This document shows positions 32,214 through 59,431 of a stretch of DNA of 64,000 bases, one piece after another (within the stretch, counting starts at the first letter, position 1; each line of letters opens with the position of its first letter). The notes under the pieces were generated by a model, which made no database searches, was not told the origin of the DNA, and saw only the letters and a program-made list of their open reading frames with translations. A program made the position numbers and the translations under genes. Source of the stretch: Candidatus Daviesbacteria bacterium (lineage in GTDB: Bacteria; Patescibacteriota; Microgenomatia; Daviesbacterales; UBA10151); contig DAIDIY010000048.1 in NCBI GenBank assembly GCA_027451625.1, forward strand, positions 26,917-90,916, in the 5' to 3' direction.

Positions 32214-32220
32214 AAAAAAG

Positions 32221-32682: not shown

Positions 32683-32744
32683 CAACAGGGACAATTTTAG
32701 CATAAAAGTAGATCAAAATAGAATTTCAAATAATCTTAATTTAT

Positions 32745-33323: not shown

Positions 33324-33416
33324 ATCCTTAGTGTACTTTGGATAACAGCTAGTGTACAGAGACTACTTGAATACAAACACTAAATCTTAAGTTAAAGTTA
33401 ACTGACAATTATCATG

Positions 33417-33803: not shown

Positions 33804-33855
33804 GTAAGCATATTTTAACATATAAACAGCTGCACCTCAAGTAAATCTTGTAGTG

Positions 33856-34533: not shown

Positions 34534-34709
34534 ACATTCATTACTAGTGTAACAAATGTCATGTCACCTTAAGGGAAATTGGAAGCTGAATCCGACACAG
34601 GATCATAAGATAAAACAATTAGCCTTAATAATAACTTAGATAAAGCAGTCCACGGCTAGCGAATATCATTAAGCGATGATATACTAAAGAATGTCATTTA
34701 GGCGTAACA

Positions 34710-34794
34710 GGAGGGGTCGCATAGTGGTCTAGTGCGGCGGTCTTGAAAACCGCTGTGTCGTAAGGCACCGTGAGTTCGAATCTCACCCCCTCCG
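34710..34794 (+). tRNA. tRNA-Ser (UGA), type II
   Basis: Acceptor GGAGGGG/CCCCTCC, anticodon stem-loop GCGGT-CTTGAAA-ACCGC, long variable arm, T-arm GTGAG-TTCGAAT-CTCAC, discriminator G. Confidence 0.8.
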
Positions 34795-34847
34795 CCTAAA
34801 AAAGACTTTTGGTTGAAAATACTAGTTGGAGTAAATTTGTAGAATCA

Positions 34848-34935
34848 GGAGAGGTCGCATAGTTGGTCTAGTGCGGCGCAGTGCTAATGCGCTGTCCGAG
34901 AAATCGGACCGTGGGTTCGAATCCCACCCTCTCCG
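34848..34935 (+). tRNA. tRNA-Ser (GCU), type II
   Basis: Acceptor GGAGAGG/CCTCTCC, anticodon stem-loop GCGCA-GTGCTAA-TGCGC, long variable arm, T-arm GTGGG-TTCGAAT-CCCAC. Confidence 0.8.
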
Positions 34936-42041: not shown

Positions 42042-42102
42042 TAAAATACTAATTTCTCTTTACTGTCTTGCCTAGAAAAATTTAAAAGATTAGTATGTTC
42101 TT

Positions 42103-42786
42103 ATGTTATCATTTTTGAGTAATACAGCTTACGCTCAGACATTAAAAATTCCTGGACTAGATCAAATTAAAGGTCCCCTAACTAATACAAATCGACCTTT
42201 TGATACTCCGGGAGGAGTTATCACAACAGGTTTAGATATTTTTTTTACAGTCATGACTTTTATTGCCTTTTTATGGATGATCTGGGGAGCTATTGCATAC
42301 ATATTTGCTGCTGGGGAGAAGGAAGCATTATCTAAAGCTAAAAATCGAATATTCGCTGCTTTAATAGGATTGTTTATAATTGCTTTATCTTATACAGCCA
42401 CCCAATTAATTTTTCAAATACTACAGCCTAATGTTCCTAATCCACTATCTCTTAGCATTATTCAACCTGTTTATGCACAAGCATCAACAGGTTATGGTTC
42501 AGATTTGAGTAAAACATATGCTTTTGGTAATTTCTTAGATTTTGGTAGCATTACTGCATTAATTATGCCTTTTATTTTCTCTATAGCTACTACTGGAGTA
42601 GTTATATACTTTCTAATTGGAGCTTTTAGATTTGTTATCTCAGCTGGTAATAAAGAATCAATAAGTAAAGCACAGTCAATGATTACCCATGCAGTAATTG
42701 GATTCTTTATTTTGATATTTATTTTTCTGATATTTCAATTTATTCCGCAATTTTTCGGTTTTAAGTTTAGTGTATTTGGCCAGTAG
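42103..42786 (+). CDS. VirB2/TrbC-like pilin-fold protein, internal tandem duplication (two modules)
   Basis: Module 1 FFTVMTFIAFLWMIWGAIAYIFAAGEKEALSKAKNRIFAALIGLFIIALSY. Module 2 FIFSIATTGVVIYFLIGAFRFVISAGNKESISKAQSMITHAVIGFFILIFIFLIF. Confidence 0.55.
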   Translation: MLSFLSNTAYAQTLKIPGLDQIKGPLTNTNRPFDTPGGVITTGLDIFFTVMTFIAFLWMIWGAIAYIFAAGEKEALSKAKNRIFAALIGLFIIALSYTATQLIFQILQPNVPNPLSLSIIQPVYAQASTGYGSDLSKTYAFGNFLDFGSITALIMPFIFSIATTGVVIYFLIGAFRFVISAGNKESISKAQSMITHAVIGFFILIFIFLIFQFIPQFFGFKFSVFGQ

Positions 42787-42834
42787 TTAACTTAAATATT
42801 TTATAAACAAAAATGTTAAGATTTAAAATCTAAA

Positions 42835-43371
42835 ATGACAAAAAAACTTTTAGTTTTATCTGTTTTTATAGTAGTCTTTTTTTTGGCTATTCCAAACAAC
42901 GTTTATGCTTGCAGTGGGCCTGGAGATTGTCCTGCTGGTGAATATTGCAACACTAGTAACCCTCCGGGAGAATGCCAGTCTGTCTTAGGACATATTAGTC
43001 CTCCCCAAGCTATTTCGAATATAGGTTACGGGTCTCAGGGTATTGGACACTTCTTAAGCCAGCTTATTCAACTTTTATATGTTGCTGCAGCAATTGTCTT
43101 TGTTTTTATGATCCTTTGGAGTGCATTTCAATGGATAATGTCAGCAGGAGATAAAGAAAAGCTAAACGCAGTAAGGAGCAGAATGATACATGCTATTATC
43201 GGTATAGCTCTTCTTGCAGCCGCTTTTGTAATAATTAGATTTTTCGGACAGGTTACAGGGTTTCATTTCTTCCAAGGACAAGAAAATCCAGACTTCTCTC
43301 TTCCTACACCTACTCCTTGTTTAATGTTTGTTCCAGGAGCAGGTCAATTGACTCCTCAGCCTTGTTCCTAA
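42835..43371 (+). CDS. VirB2/TrbC-like pilin-fold protein with Cys-rich N-terminal segment
   Basis: Signal peptide; CSGPGDCPAGEYCNTSNPPGEC; then LLYVAAAIVFVFMILWSAFQWIMSAGDKEKLNAVRSRMIHAIIGIALLAAAFVII. Confidence 0.55.
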   Translation: MTKKLLVLSVFIVVFFLAIPNNVYACSGPGDCPAGEYCNTSNPPGECQSVLGHISPPQAISNIGYGSQGIGHFLSQLIQLLYVAAAIVFVFMILWSAFQWIMSAGDKEKLNAVRSRMIHAIIGIALLAAAFVIIRFFGQVTGFHFFQGQENPDFSLPTPTPCLMFVPGAGQLTPQPCS

Positions 43372-43450
43372 ATTAAGTTTATATGCCTAATCTTTAGGTT
43401 CACTAGGACGAACTATTGACAAGGTACGTTAATCAATCTAAGATTAAATC

Positions 43451-43804
43451 ATGACTCCTACACCTACAGAATCACCAGCAACCACCATAGCAATTCAACC
43501 CCCAAGTGGTGTTGGAATAAGTCCTACTTATTCTATTAGCAGTTTATTCCACAATATCATAGGTTTATTTTTCGTAGTAGGTGCAATACTTGTAATATAC
43601 AATTTAATCATGGGTGCTTTTGATTGGATATTATCAGGTGGAGATAAGGAAAAAATAAGTGCTGCGAGAAATAAAATTATAAATGCTTTAATTGGTTTTG
43701 CCATACTTGCCGTTGCTTTTGTAATACTCAACTTTACTGGAAAATTAATTAATATTGATATTTCAAATCTTAATGTACCTAAATTAGGAAATCCTCCCTC
43801 TTAA
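43451..43804 (+). CDS. VirB2/TrbC-like pilin-fold protein
   Basis: IIGLFFVVGAILVIYNLIMGAFDWILSGGDKEKISAARNKIINALIGFAILAVAFVIL. Confidence 0.55.
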   Translation: MTPTPTESPATTIAIQPPSGVGISPTYSISSLFHNIIGLFFVVGAILVIYNLIMGAFDWILSGGDKEKISAARNKIINALIGFAILAVAFVILNFTGKLINIDISNLNVPKLGNPPS

Positions 43805-43870
43805 ATTTCTTCAACGATATAAACTAAGTTAGTTGTCAAAAATAAATATCTAATTTATTATTATTGTGAT

Positions 43871-44179
43871 ATGCAAGCCGCAGCAGGAATCGAGGATTTA
43901 CAAGCTTTAATTCAAAGAATTCTAGGATTAGTAGTAATTGGAGCATTCTTAGTTCTCTTATTCCTCTTCCTTTCAGCTGGATTCAAATATTTAACTTCAG
44001 GAGGAGAACCCAAAGGAGTTCAGTCAGCCCATAACACATATACATGGGCATTAATAGGTATCGCCCTTTTACTAATCGTATTTGTAGCCTTACGGTTAAT
44101 TTCTTCCTTTACCGGAGTAGATGTTACCAAGTTTTGTTTAGGTTTCCCTGGCTTGGAGAGTACTACTTCATGCTTTTAA
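43871..44179 (+). CDS. VirB2/TrbC-like pilin-fold protein
   Basis: LVVIGAFLVLLFLFLSAGFKYLTSGGEPKGVQSAHNTYTWALIGIALLLIVFVAL. Confidence 0.5.
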   Translation: MQAAAGIEDLQALIQRILGLVVIGAFLVLLFLFLSAGFKYLTSGGEPKGVQSAHNTYTWALIGIALLLIVFVALRLISSFTGVDVTKFCLGFPGLESTTSCF

Positions 44180-45058: not shown

Positions 45059-46792
45059 ATGCTTTCTGCCCGAGTATTAATTCTTTTATTCCTAACATTT
45101 ATATATTTAGTATTTACCAAAAATATTTATGCTGTCTCTCCTATCCCAACTCCGACAGATGATATAGCTCCAGGATCTATAATATTTAATAATTTTTCTC
45201 AAGATGCTTCAAAATATACGGTTCCTCCAACCCCAACACCGAATAGTACTTCAAGTTCTACCAACTCTGTTCCTGCTACATCTCAAAATTGGGGAGCAGC
45301 GCAACAAGCTCCTTTTACTCTAGACAATATGATGGGCGGAACTATTTGTTTCTTAGGAGGATTTGATCCATACGGCGCATGTCCAGTACAAAATGGTCCT
45401 TTAGTAAATGGACGAATTCAAGTTATGCTTTATAATCAAATTCCTGGAGATGGTGCTATTGGAGCTGCCAATAACTTAATGATCTCTTTATATAATCATC
45501 CTCCGACCTCAACCTCTTATTATTTAGCAAACTTGGGTAATTCAATCGGCATTACGAATACAGCTTATGCTGCATCTGGACCTGATCAAGGTTCTGGTTC
45601 GAGCCTAATTGTTCCTGTTTATAAAATATGGACATTCACCAGAAATATGGCTTACGTATTGATTATTTTTATAATTATAGCTGTTGGATTTATGATTATG
45701 TTCAGAAGCAAGATAAACCCGCAAACTACAATATCTATACAGTCAGCGATACCACGAATAGTAATAAGCTTGGCACTTATCACTTTCAGCTATTTCATTG
45801 CATCTTTATTAATTGACATATCTTTTTTTGGTGTTCAAATAATAGCTCAACTTTTTCTTCAAGCTCAGAATCAAGCAGGCGCTAATAATGCTTTTGATGT
45901 GAATAGTGTAGCTAACAATTCTAACATATTTCAATTATTGTCGATCGCTCAATCTCAGAGCTGGAATGTGGGTGAGATTATGACAGCTATCTGGAATGTA
46001 ACTTTAAATGCAGCCGGAAATAATTTTGCACAGATCGGTCATACAGGGAACATCGCTGGAGCAATAGGTTCAATTGTCACTGGATTAATTTTAGGAGTCG
46101 GAGGGTTAATAGGAGGAACTTTGGGAGGAATACTTATACCTCTTATACTTATGATAGTATTTTTTATTCAGACATTCAGACTTTTATGGAGCCTCCTTAA
46201 TGCATACATTACTATTCTTATATACACAGTGATTGGCCCGTTCCTAATTCTATATTCTGCTATTCCTGGGAAAGGAGGAGTTTTGACAAACTGGTGGAAA
46301 ACCATTTTAGGAAATTCGCTAATTTTTCCAGCTGTTATAGCCGTATTTTTATTTTCCGGTGTCATTCTAGGAACGCCTTCTACTGATTGGAATGGTGCTC
46401 GTCCTCCACTTTTGAATTTTGACAGCGGAGAGATATTAAGACTGGTAATCTCATACGGACTTCTTATCGGTCTACCTGCTATTCCCGGGATGGTCAAAGA
46501 ATTACTAGGTATTAAAGATATTCAAGGTATCCCTGGAGCAGCTATGGCTGGAGCTATGGCTGGGGTTGGAGTAGTTCAAGCGGGAGTCAATCTAACACAA
46601 ATTCCAGCTACTATTCAACAACGAAGACTTGCATGGAGTAGATACAACGCTGGAGTCGATAACGCTCCCGCTCCAAGAACTAGAACTGGTGCGACAGGTA
46701 GATATGCATTTATAAGGAATCTTCCATCCAACATTGTTGACTTGTTCGGTGGACAAGGTAATGGAACTGGTGGTGGCGGTGCGTCACACTAA
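45059..46792 (+). CDS. VirB6/TrbL-like polytopic membrane protein (candidate T4SS channel component)
   Basis: Signal peptide, ~150-aa extracellular segment, then at least six TM helices (aa 190-470), then a Gly-rich tail. Size and topology resemble VirB6/TrbL. No sequence motif, so assignment is by architecture and context. Confidence 0.4.
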   Translation: MLSARVLILLFLTFIYLVFTKNIYAVSPIPTPTDDIAPGSIIFNNFSQDASKYTVPPTPTPNSTSSSTNSVPATSQNWGAAQQAPFTLDNMMGGTICFLGGFDPYGACPVQNGPLVNGRIQVMLYNQIPGDGAIGAANNLMISLYNHPPTSTSYYLANLGNSIGITNTAYAASGPDQGSGSSLIVPVYKIWTFTRNMAYVLIIFIIIAVGFMIMFRSKINPQTTISIQSAIPRIVISLALITFSYFIASLLIDISFFGVQIIAQLFLQAQNQAGANNAFDVNSVANNSNIFQLLSIAQSQSWNVGEIMTAIWNVTLNAAGNNFAQIGHTGNIAGAIGSIVTGLILGVGGLIGGTLGGILIPLILMIVFFIQTFRLLWSLLNAYITILIYTVIGPFLILYSAIPGKGGVLTNWWKTILGNSLIFPAVIAVFLFSGVILGTPSTDWNGARPPLLNFDSGEILRLVISYGLLIGLPAIPGMVKELLGIKDIQGIPGAAMAGAMAGVGVVQAGVNLTQIPATIQQRRLAWSRYNAGVDNAPAPRTRTGATGRYAFIRNLPSNIVDLFGGQGNGTGGGGASH

Positions 46793-46797: not shown

Positions 46798-49110
46798 CTA
46801 ATGATGTCTCGCAGCAGGGGCGCTACCCATTGATGACCTAATCATAGCCCATATAAGTTCGAATAAGACGCCTCTTAAATTTAACCTTGTTGCAAGAATA
46901 TCTAGAGCGATCAATGATTCAAATCCTTTATTCTCAATGACTTTATCCCAGGCATTTCTAATTTCAGTTTCATCAAGTCTCATCTGTCGCCCTCTTTGAG
47001 CAACCATTAAATCCAGAGAAGACATCGAAGGTCTGGCGATATGCATGACGTGCTGACCCTCGTGAGTCTGCTCAAATCCTGCTAAATTAACCAGCATGTT
47101 CCGTATATTGCTAAACTGACCTGCACCTTGGTTAAAAAACAATCCCCCAAATTTAACCATTCCTTCTTCGCTGGGATTTGCTAAATAACCTTCACCTGAC
47201 TCTGCTTGTGACCTTATCTGATCAGGAATCAGAACCCGAGGAGCTAGTTTAAAAGAAGGTCCTTCAATAAGCTTAAAATCAAAAAGTCTAATTCTACCAT
47301 CATCAGATTTAAATGCCGAATTTATTGATGAATCCTCTATTACTTCTTCAATAAAGCTTTTCCTTTCTTTCAGATCATCTGGAGATATATTTAAAGAATT
47401 AAGATCTTCTATACGAAAAATTGTATTTTGTAAAGATAAAGATATACCTGAAGGCCATTTATAATCACCCCCATCCATTCTTCCTTTCACACCAAATATA
47501 GCATAGGTATAATTGGCTGCCATCTCAGCAGGATTCTTTTTACCAGCAACTGCAAACCTTTTTGATAAACTTTTATATAAGTCTTCAGGCAAAAGACTAA
47601 AAAAATCTCTATTATTAAAATCTACACCTTTTACTAATTCATAATACATTCTATATTTTGAATGTCCAGCACGATATCCTAATCTTGCTTTAATATTTAA
47701 ATTTCTAGCAGTATAAGAACCAGTGCCTTCCATCTCTACTCCGTACCAATCTAAGCTTCTTCCTGTATTTAAAAATTTAATCATTTCCTCTTCAGCTTTT
47801 GGATCATTGGGATCAAAAATGCGAGTAACTCCCTTTTCATCCACTCCAACCAATTTTTCATGATAATATTTTCTAAAATCCATCTCCCATTTTCTCTCAG
47901 CTATTCTCATAGCTGACTCTAAAGCAGCTTTCATATAAAATGCATGTCTGCTTTTCTCTTTATCAGATAGGTCTTTATCCGGTCTCCCTTTCTCCCAATT
48001 AGCAAAAACCTCATTTTCTATCTCTTCTCTCATCTTCTCCTTTGCACTGTTATCTTTTTTAATAAAATCTCCAGCATGCCTTTCTAAAGCTTGATAGAAA
48101 TGGAACACTAGAAGAGGTGAATTATTAGTAAGGTCATAATTTTTTTTATTACCTTCCGAATCTTTATAGCTGAACTTATATGCATCAGGAGCATCGACCA
48201 TTAAAAAATTAAGCTGATCATTATATTGTGAACCTATCGCACCGACTATTCCTTGTGTGTCTTTAGCTTGATAAAACTGAACGTACGCTTGATGAAAATG
48301 AAGTCTCCTATAAAATTCTCTATACATTGCATCACCTAAATGCTTCAACCGATAGCGGCGTTCATCATACTCATCATCACTTTCTTCGTTTTGTATAGGT
48401 TCTCCATCAGGACCGGATCTTTCACCAGGCTTAAATTTAGGAACAACCTCTGTTGTTCCTGATCCAATAGATACAGTTTTTTCACCTAGACCGGGAAGTC
48501 TTATCTTTTCTTCTACTTTAAGACTTTGCATAAGAGGTAAAACCAAAATAAATTCATTCAATCTCCTCCTATTAGATTGATCTCCTTCGGGAGCTAGACT
48601 CGACTCAATTTTATTCAATAACTCTCTCATCTCCGCAATTTTTGCCTCATCATCTCTTGGAAGATAGATATCTCGCGGGTAACCCACTTCAGACACAATA
48701 GTAAATCTTTCCCATTCTCCCTCTCTCATCTCCTCTGCAGATTTTGTCGCTTCGGAAGAAATTGACCTCGTAAAAGATTGTGCTAAAGCGGAAGCCTGTT
48801 GTTGTCTTCTAAAAGCTTCTGTCAATCGTAACTGTATCTCACTTTGTGCTTGCTGTTGTATCTGTTGGCGTAAAGCTATATCTGCTTGCATTTGTTGCTC
48901 TGCAGTCATCTCACTCATTCGATTCCGATATTCAGGAGTAGAAGTATGTTGTTGATATAATTGATCCACTCTACTATTTAAACTCCCGAATGCATCAATA
49001 TTTTCAAAAGTTTCAGACTCCTCTCTCCCCACATTCTCTTGAGGATTAGTATGCTCTGCGGGGTTAGGTGGATTCGATTCAGGATTATCCATTGGTCGTT
49101 CTAAAGACAT
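46798..49110 (-). CDS. hypothetical large soluble protein (770 aa)
   Basis: Acidic, no TM, N-terminal coiled-coil or Gln-rich region. No recognisable catalytic motif. Sits on the opposite strand inside the T4SS-like locus. Confidence 0.4.
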   Translation of the reverse strand: MSLERPMDNPESNPPNPAEHTNPQENVGREESETFENIDAFGSLNSRVDQLYQQHTSTPEYRNRMSEMTAEQQMQADIALRQQIQQQAQSEIQLRLTEAFRRQQQASALAQSFTRSISSEATKSAEEMREGEWERFTIVSEVGYPRDIYLPRDDEAKIAEMRELLNKIESSLAPEGDQSNRRRLNEFILVLPLMQSLKVEEKIRLPGLGEKTVSIGSGTTEVVPKFKPGERSGPDGEPIQNEESDDEYDERRYRLKHLGDAMYREFYRRLHFHQAYVQFYQAKDTQGIVGAIGSQYNDQLNFLMVDAPDAYKFSYKDSEGNKKNYDLTNNSPLLVFHFYQALERHAGDFIKKDNSAKEKMREEIENEVFANWEKGRPDKDLSDKEKSRHAFYMKAALESAMRIAERKWEMDFRKYYHEKLVGVDEKGVTRIFDPNDPKAEEEMIKFLNTGRSLDWYGVEMEGTGSYTARNLNIKARLGYRAGHSKYRMYYELVKGVDFNNRDFFSLLPEDLYKSLSKRFAVAGKKNPAEMAANYTYAIFGVKGRMDGGDYKWPSGISLSLQNTIFRIEDLNSLNISPDDLKERKSFIEEVIEDSSINSAFKSDDGRIRLFDFKLIEGPSFKLAPRVLIPDQIRSQAESGEGYLANPSEEGMVKFGGLFFNQGAGQFSNIRNMLVNLAGFEQTHEGQHVMHIARPSMSSLDLMVAQRGRQMRLDETEIRNAWDKVIENKGFESLIALDILATRLNLRGVLFELIWAMIRSSMGSAPAARHH

Positions 49111-49255
49111 AGGCTTATCTCCTTTTACAACAATATTCTTTATAGGATATTATACCATTTTGAGTTAAGCTTAGCCTAATTCAAACTATAATCTCTTTCA
49201 AATTTCTTGTCAATTTTATCTAACCGATTTCTATCAAAAATCTAAAAATAAAAGT

Positions 49256-50629
49256 TTATCTAAATATTTTTTCCATACGTTCTTTTATTTTTACCATTCT
49301 AGCTGCTTCATCATATCTGGTTTGGCATTCTCTACAAATATTGCATTGTGCAACTTCTACACTTTTTTTTCCACAGCCATTAGTACAATCTCCAATTCTC
49401 CATACAAGCTCCGGATGAGAGATGTCTACCACATCATACACAGACCCTCCATTAATAAATGGTAAAATGTTTCGTCTCTCTAGACCAGAGTAATTAGTGA
49501 AAGATCGTCCTTTACTTAATAACTGTCTCTGTCCCCAATCTCCACAAAAATCACCATTAGAGCCGCTGTAAACCATTAATTCCGCTCCAATAAAAGATTC
49601 TTGATACCTTCTTCCTCCTAAGAGCTCTACCTCTCTGTTTTTTTCCAGCCAGTACATAGAAAGAGCTTCTTTAGTTGCGTTAATATATTCTTGACGGACT
49701 TTTGCCTGAAGTTCATCTGGGCTCTGACCGGATTCTATTCGTGACAAAATCCATTCAGCAACAGATGGAGCTGCAAATTCTTTTATTAGCTGATGTAATC
49801 TTTTATCTTGTACAGCTTGAATTGTATCTGCTGACAAGTTAAATATTTTGTTATCCTTTCCTGCTTCGTTTTTTGCCTCACCTAATAGCCTCCAGACTTC
49901 GCCGACGTTAAAATCGTATTTCGTTTTTGCAATTGTGGTCATAGATCTATCAAGGTCAGGTTTAATCTCCGATTCTTTATCTATAAAAAACTCAGTCCCG
50001 ACTTTCTTAAGGAAGATATTAAACGCATCCCTCTGCAAATCCATTTTGAAATCATATACCACCATTCTTCGGGCTTCTCCTTCTCCGTAAATTTTTGCCA
50101 TATAGGCATATCCATAGCTACCGTTATACTTTTGGATAAGAGGGTCTTCCCAATCTTCAGCTTTTAAACTCCCCCAAAACAGCACATTCTCATCTTGGCT
50201 GTTTAGAAACTGATTTCTAACTTCTGTCATTGCTGTCCGGTCCAAACTTCTTCTCCAATCAGAAAATGTACTTAAAACATCTTTTTCTAAAAACAAATAC
50301 TCTGGAGCAGTCATGTACGGTTCTGTTGTTTGTGAATAGCGTGCCTTGATATATGTATGTTGAGGTGGAGTCAATTGAAGTCTTACTCTCGATTCAGTAT
50401 CAAAAATAAAATTACCGTTCTCCTTTTCAGAAGATATTTTTTCAGTTATTAAACCTACCCCATCATTTATAAGAGATGTTCTAACTACATTTCTAGCTCC
50501 GTTTGAACCCAGCTTCTGAACAGCTTCTTGATATAAATGATAGTATCTACTGACGTCAAAGACTCTCAGGTCTGAAGTTGATGTATAAGTGTGTTGAAAA
50601 TCAGCTAAAGATGATAAAGTTCGTTCCAT
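49256..50629 (-). CDS. hypothetical protein with C-terminal Cys4 zinc-ribbon
   Basis: 457 aa; C-terminal CTNGCGKK...CNICRECQ (CxxxC...CxxC). Co-directional with the 770-aa gene. Confidence 0.4.
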   Translation of the reverse strand: MERTLSSLADFQHTYTSTSDLRVFDVSRYYHLYQEAVQKLGSNGARNVVRTSLINDGVGLITEKISSEKENGNFIFDTESRVRLQLTPPQHTYIKARYSQTTEPYMTAPEYLFLEKDVLSTFSDWRRSLDRTAMTEVRNQFLNSQDENVLFWGSLKAEDWEDPLIQKYNGSYGYAYMAKIYGEGEARRMVVYDFKMDLQRDAFNIFLKKVGTEFFIDKESEIKPDLDRSMTTIAKTKYDFNVGEVWRLLGEAKNEAGKDNKIFNLSADTIQAVQDKRLHQLIKEFAAPSVAEWILSRIESGQSPDELQAKVRQEYINATKEALSMYWLEKNREVELLGGRRYQESFIGAELMVYSGSNGDFCGDWGQRQLLSKGRSFTNYSGLERRNILPFINGGSVYDVVDISHPELVWRIGDCTNGCGKKSVEVAQCNICRECQTRYDEAARMVKIKERMEKIFR

Positions 50630-50988
50630 GCTTTCTCCTGCTCGGGATATAAATATCTTTAGAAAACTTCCAGCACAAAATTTTAATCTTCTATCTTTGT
50701 TTTCTAAAAATGATGGTCGGTCTCCGGACTTATCAAAATAAATTGAATTACCGTTGCGGCACAGTTCTCGAATTACACGAGATTCCCTTCTTTGAATCTT
50801 ATCTGTTGTCTACAGACGATTCACCACAACTGAAATTTACTCCAACTTTTTTTGAAAAACAAGAGGGTAAACACGTTCATACTAACTTGCTAAGTTGTAC
50901 ATCCAAATAAGTCTTATTAATGAGTAATTGATCTACTTTGAACTTCTTGTCACGTATTTTTTCACGCTGTATAAAGATGGAGTAAAGT

Positions 50989-52146
50989 ATGGATGCACAT
51001 CCTGTCCCACAAAATGTGACTTCTTTTGAGTTCCACCTGGTTGGAGATATGACTCTAAAGCAATTTGGATATCTTGCAACGGGGTTAATTATTGCCTATA
51101 TCACATTCTTATTTTTTTTTAATAACCTTCCGTATGTAGCAACTCCAATTATTGCTATCTCTGCTGGATTAGGAGCAGCTTTTGCCTTTTTGCCCATCTA
51201 TAATCGTCCTTTAGATCACTGGGTAAACGTCTTCTTTCATGCTATATTCTCTCCTACCCAGAGAGCATGGAGAACCCCAACAGACAAACCAATACCAAAT
51301 GACCTAAGAGCTGAATTAATTAAAAACCGCCTTCATCTTTTTATGCAAAGCACTGCCATACCCCAATCCTCCTATGGAACACCATTTCCTTCTAACTCTG
51401 CATCTATTAATTTAAGACGTCTACCTATAAATACCCACCCAAACTTAAATTTTCCTTCACACCCTAACTCTTCTAATAAACCTGAACCATCTCAAAATCA
51501 AACCTTAAAACCGACTAAAACAGGCTCGACAACCTCTAAGATGCCTACCCCTGAGGAACTAAACCACTTAGTAGAAATGGCCCGACAGACCCAAATGCTT
51601 CAGAGTAAAACTCTCGAATTGGAAAAAGAGCTCTCCCAACTTAAGTCTTTGCTTGCATTACAATCTACAAAAGGATCTTCTCCTGTTCAGCTGTCACAAA
51701 CAGGATCAGTAGTTCAGCAAGCTGGATCACAATTAAATCAATTGCAAAAACAGGCCATACAAGTTGCACAGCAAAAAGTTCAACCTCCAATCCCTAACCC
51801 AACTCCTCCTGCTAAACCCCCTAAAGTCGTGATAATAGAGCCTCCAAAACAAACAAAAACAGTAATTGCCTTAACATCGCTACCCAATATTATTAACGGT
51901 ATTATTACAGATACAGTCGGAAATTATCTCGAAAATGTAATTGTCATAATTCATAATCAGGATAACCTACCAGTCAGGGCTTTAAAAACCAATAAACTTG
52001 GCCAGTTCACAGGAGCCACGCCGTTACCTTCTGGTGTTTACACTATTACAATGGAAAAGGAAGGATTTGATTTTGACACATTACAAATAACTCTAAACAA
52101 CCAGATTGTTCCACCAATTAAAGTTACGGCAAAAAAAGGAGGTTAA
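50989..52146 (+). CDS. VirB10/TrbI-like architecture: TM anchor, Pro-rich linker, coiled-coil, C-terminal beta domain
   Basis: Two TM helices (aa 35-75); Pro-rich aa 100-290; coiled-coil (LEKELSQLKSLLALQ); C-terminal domain GIITDTVGNYLENVIVIIHN...GVYTITMEKEGF resembling a carboxypeptidase-regulatory or Cna-B-like beta-sandwich. Directly precedes VirB4. Confidence 0.35.
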   Translation: MDAHPVPQNVTSFEFHLVGDMTLKQFGYLATGLIIAYITFLFFFNNLPYVATPIIAISAGLGAAFAFLPIYNRPLDHWVNVFFHAIFSPTQRAWRTPTDKPIPNDLRAELIKNRLHLFMQSTAIPQSSYGTPFPSNSASINLRRLPINTHPNLNFPSHPNSSNKPEPSQNQTLKPTKTGSTTSKMPTPEELNHLVEMARQTQMLQSKTLELEKELSQLKSLLALQSTKGSSPVQLSQTGSVVQQAGSQLNQLQKQAIQVAQQKVQPPIPNPTPPAKPPKVVIIEPPKQTKTVIALTSLPNIINGIITDTVGNYLENVIVIIHNQDNLPVRALKTNKLGQFTGATPLPSGVYTITMEKEGFDFDTLQITLNNQIVPPIKVTAKKGG

Positions 52147-53136
52147 ATGTTCTCTACTCAACAAGCTATATTAATCGAGGACATTAAAGATGATCTAATA
52201 TTTTTAAAAGATGGCGGCGCATCCTTAATTCTCAATACTACTGCTGTTAATTTCGGTTTACTTTTTGAGACAGAGCAAATGGCTATTATCGATGCTTTCG
52301 CTCAACTGTTAAACTCTCTTTCATTCCCAATACAAATTGTTATTCGCTCAAAAAAAATGGATATCTCTTCATACCTTAGCACACTTGAGAGAGCTTTAAA
52401 GTCACAAACTAACCAACTCCTCGCTCAACTAACTCTAGATTACCGGAATTTTGTTGAAGGATTAATTAAGGAAAACGATGTACTCGATAAACAATTCTAT
52501 GTTTGCCTTTATGTTTCAGCAATCGAAATGGGAATTTTACCTAAACAACAAACTGATAGGAGTAGAAAAGCTAAAGCAATGCTAGAAACAAGAAGAGATT
52601 TAATATTAAGGCAACTGAACAGAATTGGGCTCAAAGCGAGACAGCTTGCAACAGCTGAGTTAATTAATCTCTTTTATGATATCTATAACCCAGATAATTG
52701 GTACTTCTCCACTGATGACGAAAGTGTAGTCGATCCTGAAGCAGAAAGAAAAGAAAACGAATTACAAACGTCAACTCCCAACATACCTTCACAACTCAAA
52801 CGAATTGTTCCTCAAACACCTATTGTTCAACACACACTTCAAAGTAACCTCCAATTAAGACCGATACCTCAACTCGTTCAACATCAATCACATCTAGAAC
52901 CTAGATCTCCACTACAACAAAATTCTACCCCTCTTTCTCAAAACAACCCACAAGCTACAAATATATTTCAAAAACCTCAAATTCCATTTCAAATACCAGT
53001 TAATGGGCCTACAGTAAATCCTTTACCTCCAATAAAACAAAATCCACCAAATAGCCAACAGCCATCGCAGAACAATTCGATAAATAGGGCCTCTCCGTTT
53101 ATAGTTGAAGAACTAAAAGATGACTTTGGATCCTAA
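52147..53136 (+). CDS. VirB4/TrbE/CagE N-terminal domain protein (first part of a split VirB4) with Gln/Pro-rich tail
   Basis: N-terminus AILIEDIKDDLIFLKDGGASLILNTTAVNFGLLFETEQMAIIDAFAQLLNSLSFPIQIVIRS matches the VirB4/CagE_TrbE_VirB N-domain. Residues ~230-329 are Q/P-rich. Overlaps the next ORF by 17 nt in another frame. Confidence 0.6.
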   Translation: MFSTQQAILIEDIKDDLIFLKDGGASLILNTTAVNFGLLFETEQMAIIDAFAQLLNSLSFPIQIVIRSKKMDISSYLSTLERALKSQTNQLLAQLTLDYRNFVEGLIKENDVLDKQFYVCLYVSAIEMGILPKQQTDRSRKAKAMLETRRDLILRQLNRIGLKARQLATAELINLFYDIYNPDNWYFSTDDESVVDPEAERKENELQTSTPNIPSQLKRIVPQTPIVQHTLQSNLQLRPIPQLVQHQSHLEPRSPLQQNSTPLSQNNPQATNIFQKPQIPFQIPVNGPTVNPLPPIKQNPPNSQQPSQNNSINRASPFIVEELKDDFGS

Positions 53137-54850
53137 ACCTAAAATAGATCTTACATTGCAAGATGTCGTTGCCCCTGCTGAATGGGAGGTAGATTTTTCA
53201 CACCTACGGATCAATCAAACTCTTTTTAGAAGCTTTATAGTTACTTCATATCCAAGATTCGTTGATCCAAATTGGTTAGAACCACTAATTGCGTTTGACC
53301 ATTCACTTACCATTTCTATGTTTATTTATCCAACTAACTCCGCTGGTGTTATGGATGACTTAAAAAGAAAAATTGCAGAGATGGAGGCAACTCTCCAATC
53401 AGATTTAGATAGAGGCAGAGCTGTTGATCCGTCTGTTGAAGTTGCCTTAGAAGACGCAGAAGCTCTACAAGACCAATTGGCAAGAGGTACAGAGAGATTC
53501 TTTCAATATTCTTTGTATGTAACAGTACCTGCAAAAAATAAAACTGAACTTAATAACATATCACAGCTTGTAACATCAACTTTGAGAAGCATTTCAATTA
53601 CGGCATATCCATCTGTTTTGGAAATGGAAGATGGTTTCAAGTCAACTCTTCCAGTAGGAGAAGATATGCTATATGTTCCTCATAATATGGATACCACTTC
53701 TTTAGCCACTACGTTTCCATTTACTTCCTCTGAATTAACATCGCCCCAAGGAGTAGTTTATGGAATTAATGAGCATAATGATTCCTTAATAATCTTTGAT
53801 AGATTCAGCCAAGAAAATGCTAATTCAACAATTCTTGCTACCTCTGGAGCTGGAAAATCGTATCTGGTCAAACTAGAAACACTGCGATCTCTAATGTTAG
53901 GTACAGAGGTCATTGTTATTGATCCTGAGCGTGAATACTTAAAACTTGCTCAAGCTGTCGGAGGAGATTATATAAATTTCTCCACGAACTCTCCCATAAA
54001 GATTAATCCATTTGATCTTCCAGAAGTCGCAGACCAAGGAGAAAACGAACTGGGGAGAAAGATACTGTCATTAAGTGGCTTCCTAAAACTAGTATTAGGA
54101 GAACTTACCCCCCAAGAGTCAGCCATTTTAGATCGAGCTTTAAATACTACATATAGAATTAAAGGTATTACTGAAGATACTAGAACACAAATGGGAAAAA
54201 AGGATACTGAAATGCCACTAATGGAAGATCTATATAAAGTACTTTTGGGCATGGAGGATCAAGTATCAACAGGACTGGCGGTCCGACTTGAAAGATTCAT
54301 CAGAGGATCGCTTGCGGGAATTTTCTCTGCTCCATCAAATTTAAGAATTTCCAACCTACTGACAATCTTTTCTGTCCGTGATTTACCAGAACAACTTCGG
54401 CCTCTAGCAATGCATCTAATTTTAGATTACATTTGGACTAAGATTAGGAAGGAACAAAAAAAGCGGATATTGGTTGTTGATGAAGCATGGTATCTGATGA
54501 AATATCCTGACTCTGCCAGCTTTCTAGTTGAAATGGTAAAAAGGGCTAGAAAGTATTTTCTTGGAGTAACTACAATCAGCCAGGATGTTGAAGATTTCTT
54601 AGAAAGAGATCATGGAAAAGAGGTTATCTCAAACTCATCAATGCAAGTTTTACTTAAACAAGCGCCTGCATCAATTGAAAGGATAGGTGAAACATTCAAT
54701 CTCTCTCAAGGAGAAAAAAGGCTATTACTTTCATCTGGAGTCGGACAGGGCTTATTTTTTGCTGGTAATACTCATGTCGCGATGAGAGTAGTTGCTTCTC
54801 CAAAGGAACACCAATTAGTTACAACTAATCCCACTGAATATCAAAACTAA
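53120..54850 (+). CDS. virB4: VirB4-family type IV secretion ATPase (C-terminal catalytic part)
   Basis: Walker A ILATSGAGKSYLVK; Walker B RILVVDEAWYLM; downstream GVTTISQDVEDF; upstream FRSFIVTSYPRFVDPNWL. Confidence 0.8.
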   Translation: MTLDPKPKIDLTLQDVVAPAEWEVDFSHLRINQTLFRSFIVTSYPRFVDPNWLEPLIAFDHSLTISMFIYPTNSAGVMDDLKRKIAEMEATLQSDLDRGRAVDPSVEVALEDAEALQDQLARGTERFFQYSLYVTVPAKNKTELNNISQLVTSTLRSISITAYPSVLEMEDGFKSTLPVGEDMLYVPHNMDTTSLATTFPFTSSELTSPQGVVYGINEHNDSLIIFDRFSQENANSTILATSGAGKSYLVKLETLRSLMLGTEVIVIDPEREYLKLAQAVGGDYINFSTNSPIKINPFDLPEVADQGENELGRKILSLSGFLKLVLGELTPQESAILDRALNTTYRIKGITEDTRTQMGKKDTEMPLMEDLYKVLLGMEDQVSTGLAVRLERFIRGSLAGIFSAPSNLRISNLLTIFSVRDLPEQLRPLAMHLILDYIWTKIRKEQKKRILVVDEAWYLMKYPDSASFLVEMVKRARKYFLGVTTISQDVEDFLERDHGKEVISNSSMQVLLKQAPASIERIGETFNLSQGEKRLLLSSGVGQGLFFAGNTHVAMRVVASPKEHQLVTTNPTEYQN

Positions 54851-54855: not shown

Positions 54856-57387
54856 ATGGCTCAAGATACGGAACAAAAGCAAGATCTTTCAGACTTAGAG
54901 CAAGCCTTAAGTTGTGTAAACCCCTTTCGTCGTAAAACTTTACAAGTACTCTACAAATCACATCCTAAAACATATCAAAAGATAATTGAACAAACAATTA
55001 AGATTTTAATTAAAAATGAACCTTCTTTAAAAAATATTTTTGAATATTTACATAAACAGGAAAATGGTAATGAAATCTTTTTAAATCATCTTTACAAAGA
55101 TAATTTCTACTACACAAATCTTTGGAAAAAAGCTCATCCCGACCTGACTAGTCAGGGGGTTATAAATAATAAAATTGAAGAAATAAATAAAACAGCCATC
55201 GCAACTCGAGAACAAAAACAAAAGGTTTTGTCCGAAAAAAGTGTTTTTGAACCTCTCAATATCCAAAATGAGGTAAAAAATACAGATACAAAGAAAAATG
55301 TTCAGACAGAAAAAGAAGAAACATCGAAGGCCAGCCGACCTCCATCTCAACCCGAAAAAATTTTGTCTGGATCTAAAAAAACAACTCTTCCTAATGCTGC
55401 TTTCCCTCCTTATTCAGCAGCTCCTATAACTAACCCCGTTAACCAAACCTCAGATTCCCTTATAGACTCATCAAAAATTTCTCCCTCGGAAGATAAGATA
55501 TCCAGAGAAGCTAATATTAATATAGTCCCAATAGACCTTCAGGAAATAACCGTTCCAAAGGTTGCCCCATTAATTTCTTCTACTAAAAAAGTTGCTGGGT
55601 CCTCAGTTACCAAAAACATTCTTTCCAATGCAGCTATCTTAATAAAAAAAACAGTTGGTAAGATTTTGATCCCTGAAAACATTATTTATTTGCCCGCTGT
55701 TTTAGCCAGCGCTGCTGTAGGTGGAGCAGCTGCACCTATTATAGGTATCTCTCCAGCTGTTGGTATGGCCCTTGGCGGAGGTGCAGGCGCTACTATTATT
55801 CCGCAAGGTACTAAACGAGGTTGGTTTAACAACACCCTTAATATGGCTTTAAACTTTATACCGGGACCGGAGGGGACAGCAATTAATCTGGGAAGAAGAG
55901 TCTTAGGTAGCAGACTCGGAGTCAAGCAAGTTGCTCAAAAAGGTCTGATTGCATTTTTTAGTACTCCTCTTGGATGGGGAACTATTGGAGTTATTATTTT
56001 TTTATTTATCGTTATCTTAATTACCCAACAGAGCTCTGCCATGCTTCCTCCTTACCAGGTAGAAGGAATTTCTGAAGTCTCTGTGGCAAATTCCACACCA
56101 GGAGCTTCACTATCTCCAACAAACACTCCTGGCAGCGGAGAATCTCCAATTGGTTATGCTATACCCATAAGAGATACATCTGTTATTCCAAATACAAGTA
56201 ACACAATCGCACAAGCTGTTCAAAGTCTTTGTGGTGGTCAAGGGTATGGTGAGCCTCACTTGGAACTTTGGCAAGACCTCATTCAAGCAAGTGTTGATAA
56301 GGGTTGGAATCCATCATTTGTATCTGCGCTATGGATAGAAGAAACAGGTGCTCAATGTCCTGCTGTATATGACGATGCAGTAGGGTGTGGAAATGATCCA
56401 AATAAAAGTTCTCCTGATGCAAAAAAACGATTATTTAATTATGCTCTACCTTGTTTAGATAGTTTTTTTACTAATTGGTTTCCGAGAGGTTATAGTAATG
56501 ATCAGTTTCAAAAATTTATGTGTATTTATGCTGATGGCCCTAGCGGGTATCCGGCATGTAACTCCTCAAAATATACTGGGTTTATTTCTAGAGTAAGTTA
56601 TTGGTATACAAAACTATCTGGAAATAATTCTAGTATATCTCCTACCCCCACAACAGAATCTATCCCAAACGATATTACAGGGAAAATAAACACTATAAAT
56701 CAGCAATTTCATATCGATTTTAGTAAGTTTGATTTTCAGAGTGCGGGGTTAACTACATCTCAATATAACCAAGATCTTCAATGGGCCTGGGCGGATTTAA
56801 ATCTTGCAAAACAAGTTGCTCCTAAATTTGATACACTTCTTGGAAATGTACAGATAGAACTAGGATCCCTGCCGTATAATTACAGGAGCGGCCAAACTGT
56901 TAACTTCTCTAAAAACTACTATTTCTTCACTACAGAAAATTTTTTCAAACAGAATTTCATTCACGAGTTAACCCATGTTATAAACGATGGCCAACCTGGA
57001 AAATATGGAGTCGATTTATGGAACCAAGCCATCACAAAAGAAGGATACATTAGTCAATACTCTTCCGCTGCCACCCCTGGAGATGTTTCTCAAATTTGTA
57101 CATATAGTTATCCATTAGCAGATGAAGAACAATATATGTCAGCTGGAAACACAAACCCAAACGATACAATCCTTCAATACATTGATGCAAGAGACGACGA
57201 GGATTTCTCAGAATCTGTAGCTTATTATATTACCAGCTTTTATGATCCTCCTATTGTAGAAATGCCTTATGGTAACAGCGCTACAAGTCCTTCCTGTGCA
57301 GGTGTAGAAAATTCTACCAATCCGTTTACTGGTGGAGGGCACCCCTACCATACAGAATTTATAAAAAAGATATTAGGCGGGCAGTAA
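54856..57387 (+). CDS. large multi-domain protein: Gly-rich TM segment, lysozyme/transglycosylase-like region and HExxH metallopeptidase-like motif (candidate T4SS-associated cell-wall hydrolase or effector)
   Basis: 843 aa. Central Gly/Ala-rich hydrophobic block (AAVGGAAAPIIGISPAVGMALGGGAGA), then ITQQ. GQGYGEPHLELWQDLIQASVDKGWNPSFVSALWIEETG resembles lysozyme/SLT-type active-site regions. FIHELTHVINDG carries HExxH. Confidence 0.35.
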   Translation: MAQDTEQKQDLSDLEQALSCVNPFRRKTLQVLYKSHPKTYQKIIEQTIKILIKNEPSLKNIFEYLHKQENGNEIFLNHLYKDNFYYTNLWKKAHPDLTSQGVINNKIEEINKTAIATREQKQKVLSEKSVFEPLNIQNEVKNTDTKKNVQTEKEETSKASRPPSQPEKILSGSKKTTLPNAAFPPYSAAPITNPVNQTSDSLIDSSKISPSEDKISREANINIVPIDLQEITVPKVAPLISSTKKVAGSSVTKNILSNAAILIKKTVGKILIPENIIYLPAVLASAAVGGAAAPIIGISPAVGMALGGGAGATIIPQGTKRGWFNNTLNMALNFIPGPEGTAINLGRRVLGSRLGVKQVAQKGLIAFFSTPLGWGTIGVIIFLFIVILITQQSSAMLPPYQVEGISEVSVANSTPGASLSPTNTPGSGESPIGYAIPIRDTSVIPNTSNTIAQAVQSLCGGQGYGEPHLELWQDLIQASVDKGWNPSFVSALWIEETGAQCPAVYDDAVGCGNDPNKSSPDAKKRLFNYALPCLDSFFTNWFPRGYSNDQFQKFMCIYADGPSGYPACNSSKYTGFISRVSYWYTKLSGNNSSISPTPTTESIPNDITGKINTINQQFHIDFSKFDFQSAGLTTSQYNQDLQWAWADLNLAKQVAPKFDTLLGNVQIELGSLPYNYRSGQTVNFSKNYYFFTTENFFKQNFIHELTHVINDGQPGKYGVDLWNQAITKEGYISQYSSAATPGDVSQICTYSYPLADEEQYMSAGNTNPNDTILQYIDARDDEDFSESVAYYITSFYDPPIVEMPYGNSATSPSCAGVENSTNPFTGGGHPYHTEFIKKILGGQ

Positions 57388-58975: not shown

Positions 58976-59431
58976 TCATTGTTCTTTTCGTTGTGCGGAT
59001 ACAAACTTCTGAATCTCTTCCTCTCTAACTCTTATCAGACGAAAACTAACTCTTCCGCTTTGTATTAGGTTTTTAATGTGTTTTTCTTCTTCTGTCAAGA
59101 GAGCAGAATCTCCTGATTTAACCTCAATAAAATCTATCCTATCGTTATTTTTAATACCAATGAAGTCAATCGGCCAACCTAAAGGAACAATTCGATCGTA
59201 GTCGTAGCGCAGTTCAGCATAGGTTAGAAGTTCGGCCATTTTTCCTTTTTGTGGATTAATTGAACCTTGAATTGTTTGCAAAATCTTTACTGGAAGTTCC
59301 TGAACTCCACGATAAAGATCTATTAAATCTGTGGGGATATCTCCTCTTGGTTTTTGATGAACCCTTCCTAAAAGATATGCAATAAGTAAAGCAGATGCTC
59401 CAAGAAGACAATAAACTATTATTGGATTCAT
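58976..59431 (-). CDS. membrane-anchored PD-(D/E)xK-like nuclease-fold protein (YraN/Hjc-like), hypothetical
   Basis: N-terminal TM; core GWPIDFIGIKNNDRIDFIEVKSGDSALLTEEEK shows a D...(D/E)VK arrangement typical of the restriction-endonuclease-like fold. Confidence 0.35.
   Translation of the reverse strand: MNPIIVYCLLGASALLIAYLLGRVHQKPRGDIPTDLIDLYRGVQELPVKILQTIQGSINPQKGKMAELLTYAELRYDYDRIVPLGWPIDFIGIKNNDRIDFIEVKSGDSALLTEEEKHIKNLIQSGRVSFRLIRVREEEIQKFVSAQRKEQ

Follow-up and report, generated by a model that had tools for sequence, protein, structure and literature searches.

Cobalamin riboswitches classically govern the uptake of vitamin B12, its synthesis, and B12-independent isozymes, and nearly all of those characterised switch their gene off upon B12 binding. 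Regulators and antisense RNAs under the control of B12 riboswitches also exist, such as PocR/AspocR in Listeria and EutX in Enterococcus. A different kind of gene arrangement is represented by the adaptor/chaperone and effector cassettes of secretion systems, including the DUF4123, DUF1795, and DUF2169 adaptors of T6SS, the CagF-CagA pair of H. pylori, and the Xanthomonas X-Tfe effectors with their C-terminal XVIPCD; we know of no such cassette that is controlled by a B12 riboswitch.

The T4SS of Patescibacteria has been described as essential for epibiotic growth and relaxase-less, with its function unknown (PMC12102498, PMC10633639, PMC11665869). The locus analysed here matches the description of the MPF-FATA-like T4SS near dnaA/dnaN in these organisms (Quinonero-Coronel et al. 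2025, PMC12102498; Wang et al. 2023, PMC10633639), while the antisense gene module that it contains, the two protein families of this module, and its riboswitch are absent from those two descriptions.

The antisense gene pair and its surroundings

The stretch of DNA under study ("the window", 64,000 nt) originates from Candidatus Daviesbacteria (Microgenomatia, CPR). Within its T4SS locus, two genes, here termed A770 and B457, are encoded antisense to their neighbours. Their existence as soluble proteins of 770 and 457 amino acids had been claimed in the original prediction and is borne out by the ORF listing and the Shine-Dalgarno sites. The genes are as follows:

45059–46792, plus strand: VirB6-like polytopic membrane protein, 6–7 TM segments by hydropathy, convergent with A770
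46798–49110, minus strand: A770 gene, 770 aa, ATG start (ORF listing)
49256–50629, minus strand: B457 gene, 457 aa, ATG start (ORF listing)
50989–54850, plus strand: divergent T4SS operon (Pfam and NCBIfam), comprising the next three genes
50989–52146, plus strand: PrgI/VirB3-like gene, PrgI domain and CarboxypepD_reg beta-sandwich
52147–53136, plus strand: TrsD-like/VirB4 N-terminal part (Pfam/NCBIfam)
53120–54850, plus strand: VirB4 ATPase, CD1110 family (Pfam/NCBIfam)

A770 is preceded by the Shine-Dalgarno site AAGGAG, 8 nt 5' of its ATG, and B457 by AGGAG at a distance of 5 nt. The flanking gene at 50989–52146 had initially been taken as VirB10-like; with its PrgI/VirB3-like part and CarboxypepD_reg domain it is a different protein, and one that is expected in a monoderm MPF-FATA-type system. 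VirB4 is 67–77% identical across approximately 40 Daviesbacteria loci. The VirB6-like gene is without a Pfam match, its product is 37–49% identical in relatives, and it is kept beside the antisense module; its stop codon and that of A770 are separated by 5 bp, and no terminator was found between them. The locus also contains a VirB2-like pilin array, with dnaN/dnaA/yidC directly downstream. No relaxase is encoded near the T4SS locus, while a VirD4-like (T4CP-like) gene is present elsewhere in the window (15610–17952). None of the DGR-type repeats in the window touches the A770 or B457 gene; in one relative (L082), a bAvd (DGR accessory) gene adjoins the module.

The leader RNA of the B457 gene

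The 5' leader of the B457 gene carries a candidate cobalamin riboswitch, which is absent from the original prediction and had not been anticipated by any of the functions proposed there. The control elements on the minus strand are:

50698–50843, minus strand: aptamer of the cobalamin (B12) riboswitch, B457 leader (Rfam RF00174)
50760–50753, minus strand: riboswitch core motif GCCGCAAC (motif search)
50730–50719, minus strand: B12-box-like core AAGUCCGGAGACC (motif search)
50635–50711, minus strand: putative expression platform of the B457 leader (folding and conservation)
49149–49213, minus strand: promoter-like elements 5' of A770 (consensus match only)

The aptamer scores 51.4 bits against RF00174, for which the gathering cut-off is 31.5, with an E-value of 7e-10 when all of the window is searched and of 6.5e-12 in a local search. 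The leader RNA retains the conserved core GGGAA...GCCGCAAC...AAGUCNGGAGACC, and the core strings are invariant in all six aligned leaders. Covariation analysis found 97.6% of cells paired versus 30–57% in slid controls, together with 40 double-sided changes; in helix 2, such compensatory changes affect four of the five pairs. In 12 other related loci, gathering-level Rfam matches (36.5–58.9 bits) immediately precede the B gene, and a cobalamin-clan riboswitch occupies the equivalent position in 33. When a custom CM was applied to 85 sources, it returned exactly one match per locus in 32 of them, with position and strand identical throughout, and none in non-Daviesbacteria loci. The element is present in 29 of 31 B-bearing loci for which upstream DNA is available versus four of ten loci that lack B. 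Judged from its sequence, the leader RNA thus qualifies as a cobalamin riboswitch by score, by core and covariation, and by its cis position with an expression platform. It has in common with the known cobalamin riboswitches (RF00174, AdoCbl-II RF01689, clan CL00101) the same core, compensatory changes, and a coding-strand site before the Shine-Dalgarno sequence and ATG. In contrast to these, the controlled gene is neither a transporter or biosynthetic gene nor one for a B12-independent isozyme, but encodes an orphan Zn-ribbon protein in a CPR T4SS cluster; no report linking a cobalamin riboswitch to a T4SS-embedded orphan gene was found in the literature.

The platform consists, in this order, of an AU-rich hairpin (50711–50655), a U-rich stretch, and the conserved element CCCGAGCAGGAG (50646–50635), which includes the Shine-Dalgarno site 5 nt from the B457 ATG. 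The leader folds with −19.5 kcal/mol (z −2.6). From the end of the aptamer to the ATG, 68 nt are counted here and 10–32 nt in most relatives; an element of the form CCCG-N4-CAGGAG-N4-6-AUG directly 3' of the aptamer is kept in approximately 20 of them. By analogy with nearly all characterised cobalamin riboswitches, B12 would exert OFF control, here probably at the level of translation by masking of the ribosome-binding site.

Since the riboswitch is situated in the leader of the B457 gene, the module is read as a B12-controlled operon. Promoter-like sites of their own are, however, found 5' of A770 and of many of the large partner genes in relatives. For A770, these are TTGACA-17-TATAGT at 49213–49185 (minus strand), matching the consensus at 11 of 12 positions, and an extended −10 element, TGGTATAAT, at 49157–49149 (minus strand); TTGACA and TGGTAyAAT-like motifs also precede the A-family genes of loci L004 and L009. 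Given this element, control by B12 is confidently predicted for B457, but is no more than a possibility for A770. At its other end, the B457 gene diverges from the PrgI-VirB4 operon over a shared control region of 360 bp.

Two lineage-restricted protein families in a modular slot

A770 is an acidic protein (pI 5.55, GRAVY −0.73) with neither cysteines nor a TM segment or signal peptide, and is taken as cytoplasmic. The depletion of cysteine had been considered as a hint at secretion, but was dropped, because VirB4 and PrgI of this locus are also devoid of it. Relatives are scarce, numbering only 23 among 1.84 billion representative proteins. The AlphaFold model is confident (pLDDT 80, pTM 0.76) and mostly alpha-helical, with a disordered start (residues 1–38), a long helix (70–114), and a small beta-hairpin/helix domain (133–215), followed by a large all-alpha body (245–742) and a C-terminal amphipathic helix (745–762). 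The predicted fold found no match among solved or viral structures, and none to a relaxase or ATPase. Across the family, only R269 and G462 are invariant; the C-terminal amphipathic helix with a terminal Lys recurs in 24 of 24 members, and corresponds to no defined translocation signal.

B457 (pI 5.81, six Cys) is likewise without a TM segment or signal peptide and taken as cytoplasmic. Its C-terminal Cys4 ribbon, C415-x3-C419 and C432-x2-C435, follows a Gly/Ser-rich linker. These four cysteines, as well as C362 and S154, are invariant in 28 family members; the zinc ribbon that the original prediction had recognised is, therefore, genuine and conserved, with metal binding predicted. The AF2 model, built from four sequences, reached a pLDDT of only 36.8, and the domain searches revealed neither an HTH nor any other known DNA-binding domain. 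The B family is fast-evolving and restricted to Daviesbacteria, with a body of 300–500 aa in four very divergent subtypes. Its HMM picks out a single ORF per locus in 30 loci. Without exception, this ORF is on the minus strand, next to the PrgI/VirB4 operon, from which it diverges as the first gene; none was found away from the T4SS slot or elsewhere in the flanks of the 85 sources. A narrower search of related loci with a B-III alignment added only one contig. About ten related loci lack B and retain the large protein, which implies that B is not an obligate partner.

Neither protein belongs to a recognised family, as had been stated from the outset: no match was obtained in Pfam or NCBIfam for A770 and 24 A-family members or for B457 and 28 B-family members, and searches of PHROG, PADLOC, and the PDB gave no relatives. 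The PDB was searched by sequence and with four profiles, B457 eliciting only weak matches to ribosomal Zn-ribbon proteins (generic noise); this remote homology check, together with the unmatched A770 fold, agrees with the initial view. As to the designation of both proteins as orphans, it holds in the sense of absent known families, but not strictly, as both belong to lineage-restricted families. The expected conservation beside VirB4 and VirB6 is found for the B family, with its single copy in the same slot of every one of the 30 loci, and in part for the A family, which is present in nine loci and as distant relatives in the synteny comparison.

The order of the module is riboswitch, B, occasional TA or ATPase genes, and a large acidic protein that lies stop-to-stop with the VirB6-like gene; insertions always fall between B as the first and the large gene as the last. 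The triad of B-like, A-like, and convergent VirB6 genes also occurs on the independent contigs L082 and L083. Compared with this locus, relatives have VirB4 at 67–77% and VirB6 at 37–49% identity, whereas A770 reaches no more than 29% in partial alignments and a counterpart of B457 mostly goes undetected; the pairwise identities have a median of 16% for B versus 78% for VirB4, with weak co-divergence of the two (rho 0.28, Mantel p ~0.004). By these sequence comparisons, the A and B proteins are shown to diverge at a much higher rate than the T4SS core. Four B subtypes pair with two large-protein superfamilies, between which no relationship was detected. A C-terminal Trp-containing tail was considered as a possible common feature of both superfamilies; being too short, it was given no weight. 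The gene pair thus appears to be the local version of an antisense module conserved in Daviesbacteria T4SS loci, putatively B12-controlled, with control of A770 being only possible.

Could these genes be passengers of a recombination or insertion hotspot, i.e., selfish or defence genes that contribute neither to secretion nor to B12 biology? In relatives, the gap between the pilin-VirB6 and PrgI-VirB4 operons indeed holds TA modules (Gp49/HigB with HTH, PIN, AbiEii/AbiEi), AAA_14/DUF4143 ATPases, and varying ORF numbers, and in other lineages ClpB, which makes position alone weak evidence for a T4SS function; the neighbouring bAvd gene of L082 and the loose agreement of B subtypes with VirB4 phylogeny point in the same direction. 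We nevertheless regard this as very unlikely, given the fixed gene order with insertions confined to the middle, the single B copy per locus with none elsewhere in the flanks, and a metabolite riboswitch across approximately 33 loci, which is atypical of defence or selfish cassettes. PADLOC (E ≤0.1) and PHROG gave no match, nor did tblastn of plasmid collections. An immunity role, as once suggested, is without support.

It had further been proposed that the proteins might replace a relaxase, and by extension a coupling protein, as missing parts of a conjugation apparatus. Patescibacteria T4SS loci are generally without a relaxase (PMC12102498), and in Gottesmanbacteria-like relatives a VirD4-type T4CP resides in the equivalent slot, as the first gene divergent from PrgI. 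B457 and A770, however, share with VirD4/TraG coupling proteins the slot, but no P-loop or any T4CP domain: Walker A is absent from 28 B and 24 A sequences, TM segments from A770 and B457, and the alignments reveal no HUH-type or catalytic motif, their invariant residues being only R269/G462 in A and Ser and Cys in B. Pfam and the PDB yield no relatives, the A770 fold is unlike that of a relaxase or ATPase, and the window already contains its VirD4-like gene. On these missing motifs the idea is rejected as largely refuted, and we consider it extremely improbable. Profiles of known T4SS components (VirB1-11, PrgX/Trs/Con, TrsD, pilins) match the neighbouring genes, and none of A770, B457, or the 28 B and 24 A sequences.

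Functional readings of the module

Cargo/effector or regulator roles, both among those originally proposed, are possible. The reading that we tentatively favour, short of calling it probable, is that of a T4SS accessory induced by B12 starvation, composed of a Zn-ribbon adaptor and a variable partner or cargo. B12 binding would shut the B457 gene off, so that the module would be produced under B12 shortage; in an epibiont unable to make B12, this would be the state of not being fed by a host. B457 would act as a cytoplasmic adaptor/chaperone or gatekeeper at the VirB4/PrgI base, and its client, A770, would be a substrate for translocation or else a docking factor, with recognition via the C-terminal helix. 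The fixed slot, the linkage of riboswitch and B, the rapid divergence of A and B relative to VirB4, the modularity of B and large proteins, the C-terminal helix of the A family, and the published relaxase-less T4SS context are consistent with this, as is the VirD4-type coupling protein filling the equivalent slot in more distant CPR relatives. The combinable B subtypes and large proteins resemble the adaptor-effector cassettes, with which the module shares a moderately conserved first gene followed by a hypervariable, interchangeable large gene in a secretion cluster. Like CagA, the large proteins are without family or fold relatives and have a conserved C-terminal element; however, neither sequence nor structure shows homology to these cassettes. 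Several points argue against an accessory role: we infer secretion, A-B interaction, and binding to T4SS parts alike; A770 and many large partners might escape B12 regulation through their own promoter-like sites; B is missing from approximately ten loci with a large protein; the slot also collects TA modules, ATPases, and ClpB; and the classical targets of cobalamin riboswitches do not include secretion.

This last point leads to the main alternative, a purely cytoplasmic role in the economy of cobalamin, where B457, alone or with A770, would serve B12 salvage, trafficking, or storage, or as a B12-independent substitute, and its placement in the T4SS locus would be inherited synteny. Apart from the riboswitch there is no direct functional signal, and such switches classically serve B12 uptake, B12 synthesis, and B12-independent isozymes; both proteins are cytoplasmic, the invariant Ser and Cys and the metal site of B would suit an enzyme or cofactor handler, and the slot is a general inter-operon gap gathering unrelated genes. 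We hold this to be rather unlikely, since a median B identity of 16% where VirB4 has 78% is extreme for a metabolic protein, and B is confined to one CPR lineage and never found outside the T4SS slot in 85 sources. Moreover, the B12-binding motif DxHxxG occurs in none of 28 B and one of 24 A members, Walker A is absent from both families, and no likeness to B12 enzymes or binders was seen in Pfam, NCBIfam, or the PDB.

The divergent transcription of B457 from the ATPase operon over their shared 360-bp region, and its zinc ribbon on a flexible linker, would also suit a nucleic-acid- or protein-binding regulator which relays B12 status, standing in for host contact, to the PrgI-VirB4 or pilin-VirB6 operon, with A770 being an unrelated or structural neighbour. 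Read-through across the closely spaced A770 and VirB6 stop codons, in the absence of a terminator, would yield antisense RNA to VirB6, and PocR/AspocR and EutX provide B12-dependent precedents. Yet, B457 has no HTH or known DNA-binding domain, and a body of 300–500 aa in four very divergent subtypes is not what a dedicated regulator usually has; we deem such a role quite unlikely.

Returning to the T4SS accessory, a more far-reaching and, in our estimation, improbable version takes the B12 level as a host-feeding signal. Depletion would release the adaptor, which would load a hypervariable, host-specific A770-type giant of novel fold onto the T4SS for delivery into or against the host to obtain nutrients. 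If this is true, the T4SS of Patescibacteria would gain, in such a nutrient-gated effector cassette, its first substrate candidates as well as a first regulatory input.

At the level of the locus, the candidate riboswitch is the first feature to tie this T4SS cluster to a nutrient signal. This B12 switch, wired into the cluster, is testable in vitro without cultivation and might provide CPR genetics with an inducible element of native origin. Should the link to the T4SS not hold, there would still be a protein family new to the B12 regulon, in organisms that rely wholly on scavenged cofactors. The lineage-wide Zn-ribbon protein at its fixed position beside VirB4/PrgI offers a concrete handle on the T4SS, and the interchangeable, fast-evolving giant cytoplasmic proteins, one of them with a confident yet unmatched predicted fold, are, of the candidates at hand, the strongest for clients of the T4SS in the Daviesbacteria lineage.

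Antisense genes in the secretion cluster

The two antisense open reading frames of the original prediction are recovered with exactly the coordinates and lengths claimed; they are two real genes, each with an ATG start and a strong upstream Shine-Dalgarno site. Neither product, the 770-aa A770 (pI 5.55, no cysteine) or the 457-aa B457 (pI 5.81, six cysteines), contains a hydrophobic segment or signal peptide. The surrounding T4SS is Gram-positive-type (MPF-FATA-like), and the flanking gene previously regarded as VirB10-like carries PrgI (VirB3-like) and a CarboxypepD_reg domain instead.

Genes of the T4SS cluster in the window (antisense genes from the ORF listing)
40098-44179 (+): T4SS_pilin genes
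45059-46792 (+): VirB6-like polytopic gene
46798-49110 (-): A770, 770 aa
49256-50629 (-): B457, 457 aa
50989-52146 (+): PrgI (VirB3-like) gene with CarboxypepD_reg domain
52147-53136 (+): TrsD-like / VirB4 N-terminal gene
53120-54850 (+): VirB4, CD1110 family

VirB4 is encoded by two genes overlapping by 17 nt, one TrsD-like for the N-terminal part and one for a CD1110-type ATPase, an arrangement which is kept in relatives and agrees with the TrsD observation in PMC12102498. Such a T4SS architecture, adjacent to dnaA/dnaN and with no relaxase, is described in that study, where the two antisense genes are not mentioned. In the window, dnaN, dnaA and yidC lie immediately downstream of the T4SS genes, and relatives of VirB4 place the stretch in Candidatus Daviesbacteria (Microgenomatia, CPR). 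A small Endonuc_Holl gene, related to archaeal Holliday junction resolvases (58976-59431, -), is located between dnaN and dnaA, in the presumed replication origin region.

The pilin array comprises at least four divergent T4SS_pilin (VirB2-like) genes; its first pilin domain is fused to a 647-aa protein, and a 122-nt direct repeat of 70% identity (43121-43242 / 43614-43735) lies between adjacent paralogues. Directly 3' of VirB4, an 843-aa protein without Pfam match is encoded (54856-57387, +), with two predicted TM segments and nine cysteines, which may be the component of the T4SS exposed at the surface or facing the wall. It is hypervariable like both antisense genes, the only similar protein being that of locus L002 (28% identity over 24% of the length).

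Substitution of a relaxase or of the type IV coupling protein (T4CP) by the antisense proteins is essentially excluded; for the T4CP, a VirD4-like candidate is already present about 30 kb from the cluster, namely a 780-aa protein (15610-17952, -) matching DUF87/HerA and TrwB_AAD_bind.

Two lineage-restricted protein families

Searches of Pfam, NCBIfam, PHROGs and PADLOC gave no match for A770 or B457. The orphan status originally assigned to them thus holds with respect to known families, but both proteins belong to small, lineage-restricted families of their own.

For B457, antisense ORFs between VirB6 and PrgI were clustered from 80 VirB4-anchored loci, yielding a 29-member family, whose HMM matched a single ORF per locus in 30 loci, each time antisense to PrgI and as its immediate upstream neighbour. 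Median pairwise identity is 16%, versus 78% for VirB4, and six residues are invariant: S154, C362 and the ribbon cysteines C415, C419, C432 and C435, the ribbon following a Gly/Ser-rich linker. The AlphaFold2 model, built from only four sequences, is too poor to indicate a fold (pLDDT 36.8). A role of B457 as a regulator is considered improbable.

When 1.84 billion representative proteins were searched exhaustively with HMMER, only 23 relatives of A770 (536-934 aa) came up, two of which were traced to contigs L082 and L083, both carrying the same triad of a B-like Zn-ribbon gene, an A-like gene and a convergent VirB6. All members of the A family end in an amphipathic helix with a terminal Lys. 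The AlphaFold2 model of A770 is confident (pLDDT 79.7, pTM 0.76; 24-sequence alignment), and the predicted fold has no match in the PDB (Foldseek, best E 0.15, TM ~0.1) or in BFVD.

Regions of the A770 AlphaFold2 model
Residues 1-38: disordered
Residues 70-114: long helix
Residues 133-215: small beta-hairpin/helix domain, a conserved segment in the family
Residues 245-742: large all-alpha body
Residues 745-762: terminal helix, lower confidence

On L082, a Logan contig, a bAvd / 23S_rRNA_IVP gene (18-392, -) lies next to the B-like/A-like pair on its upstream side. bAvd assists diversity-generating retroelements as an accessory protein; in the window, neither antisense gene was seen to take part in template or variable repeats.

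A cobalamin riboswitch on the first antisense gene

An Rfam scan of the window revealed the following element in the 5' leader of B457:
50698-50843 (-): cobalamin riboswitch RF00174, 51.4 bits, E 7e-10 (gathering score 31.5)

Gathering-level matches of the same clan (RF00174 or AdoCbl-II RF01689) precede the first antisense gene directly in 12 loci (L002, L004, L010, L017, L084, L016, L036, L083, L029, L038, L019, L039). With our own covariance model, built from six leaders and searched against 85 sources (1.48 Mb), exactly one match each was found in 32 sources, all at the equivalent position and strand, and none in non-Daviesbacteria loci. Among the 22 strongest matches, 97.6% of cells are paired, compared with 30-57% when the partners are slid, and compensatory changes are present at four of the five pairs of one helix. 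The riboswitch is found in 29 of the 31 B-bearing loci with upstream DNA (two of these weak; exceptions L006 and L021) and in four of ten loci lacking B (L002, L003, L007, L009), where a short ORF or a distant B-like gene lies downstream of it.

The element CCCG-N4-CAGGAG-N4-6-AUG, which includes the ribosome-binding site, is conserved 10-32 nt 3' of the aptamer in most relatives; in the window, the same element follows at 68 nt, with an extra AU-rich hairpin and a U-tract intervening. This geometry is as expected for translational control; polarity and ligand binding we infer. Since A770, like several other large genes, has its own TTGACA and TGGTAyAAT promoter-like sites, control by B12 is uncertain for this gene, whereas for B457 it is very probable. 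Literature searches brought up no earlier description of a cobalamin riboswitch associated with a T4SS of CPR bacteria.

Elsewhere in the window, long ORFs are sparse around a group I catalytic intron (24643-24843, +; Rfam 80.6 bits); as often happens in CPR bacteria, the intron probably splits a gene for rRNA or tRNA. A tmRNA gene (33414-33803, -; 90 bits) and a tRNA gene cluster (30998-34935) were also detected.

Exchange within the antisense unit and its proposed role

Within the T4SS cluster, the antisense unit keeps to one position, and in Daviesbacteria-like loci its layout is constant, with B first and the gene of a large, acidic, soluble protein (570-1760 aa) last, stop-to-stop with VirB6. 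The large proteins form two superfamilies, between which hhalign detected no relationship: SF1 unites the A family, the L005 protein and the D6 cluster (probability 90-97%), and SF2 the Big17 cluster, the G2 cluster and the L036 protein (97-99.7%). The four B subtypes pair freely with both. SF2 proteins (1200-1760 aa, acidic, soluble; no Pfam or PDB relatives) take the place of A770 in most Daviesbacteria loci (L015, L010, L017, L018, L022, L024, L026, L040, L023, L025, L036).

Identity of window genes to their closest relatives
VirB4: 67-77%
DnaN: 46-63%
TrsD: 40-62%
PrgI: 38-67%
VirB6: 37-49%
A770: at most 29%, partial
B457: usually undetectable

The antisense genes evolve very fast and are exchanged as modules. 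The stretch separating B from the large gene holds toxin-antitoxin pairs (Gp49/HigB+HTH, PIN, AbiEii/AbiEi) and as many as three AAA_14/DUF4143 ATPase genes (L010, L016, L017, L019, L003, L011, L028, L039); they are read as insertions, so that this intergenic region is an insertion hotspot. That the antisense genes themselves are hotspot cargo is, in our view, highly improbable. More distant CPR lineages carry a VirD4-type coupling protein or ClpB in the same slot. The ClpB of Gottesmanbacteria-like loci, beside PrgI, is unusually long (980-1443 aa) and bears an additional region at its C-terminus that resembles Zn_ribbon_8 / CDC48_2 (L059 2957-7285, -; relatives L064, L066, L072, L077). Downstream of the T4SS genes of L006, a DUF3800-III RNA motif was noted (RF02962, 52 bits; 12958-13084, -; one relative).

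That a conserved module under riboswitch control exists is, taken by itself, very probable. Cobalamin riboswitches usually follow OFF logic, and the module would for this reason be expressed under B12 scarcity. Given that CPR bacteria rely on scavenged cofactors, low B12 may plausibly signal missing productive host contact. Within the secretion cluster, a conserved first gene is combined with a large gene that is hypervariable and exchangeable and whose product ends in a conserved helix. Adaptors and effectors of other secretion systems are grouped in this way, and the module would work as a cassette of that kind for the T4SS. The main alternative, a purely cytoplasmic B12-related function for which the synteny with the T4SS is incidental, is rather unlikely in view of the extreme divergence of the proteins and of the lack of any B12-binding or enzyme signature in either family. 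The complete chain from B12-scarcity signal to adaptor-plus-effector-type cassette is preferred, if only tentatively.

The T4SS context and the riboswitch class are known; the riboswitch-T4SS combination, the two protein families and the predicted A770 fold appear to be undescribed. We rate the antisense module as a putative B12 regulon member and candidate T4SS accessory cassette, by which the question of what the essential T4SS of Patescibacteria does, and when, is made experimentally approachable.
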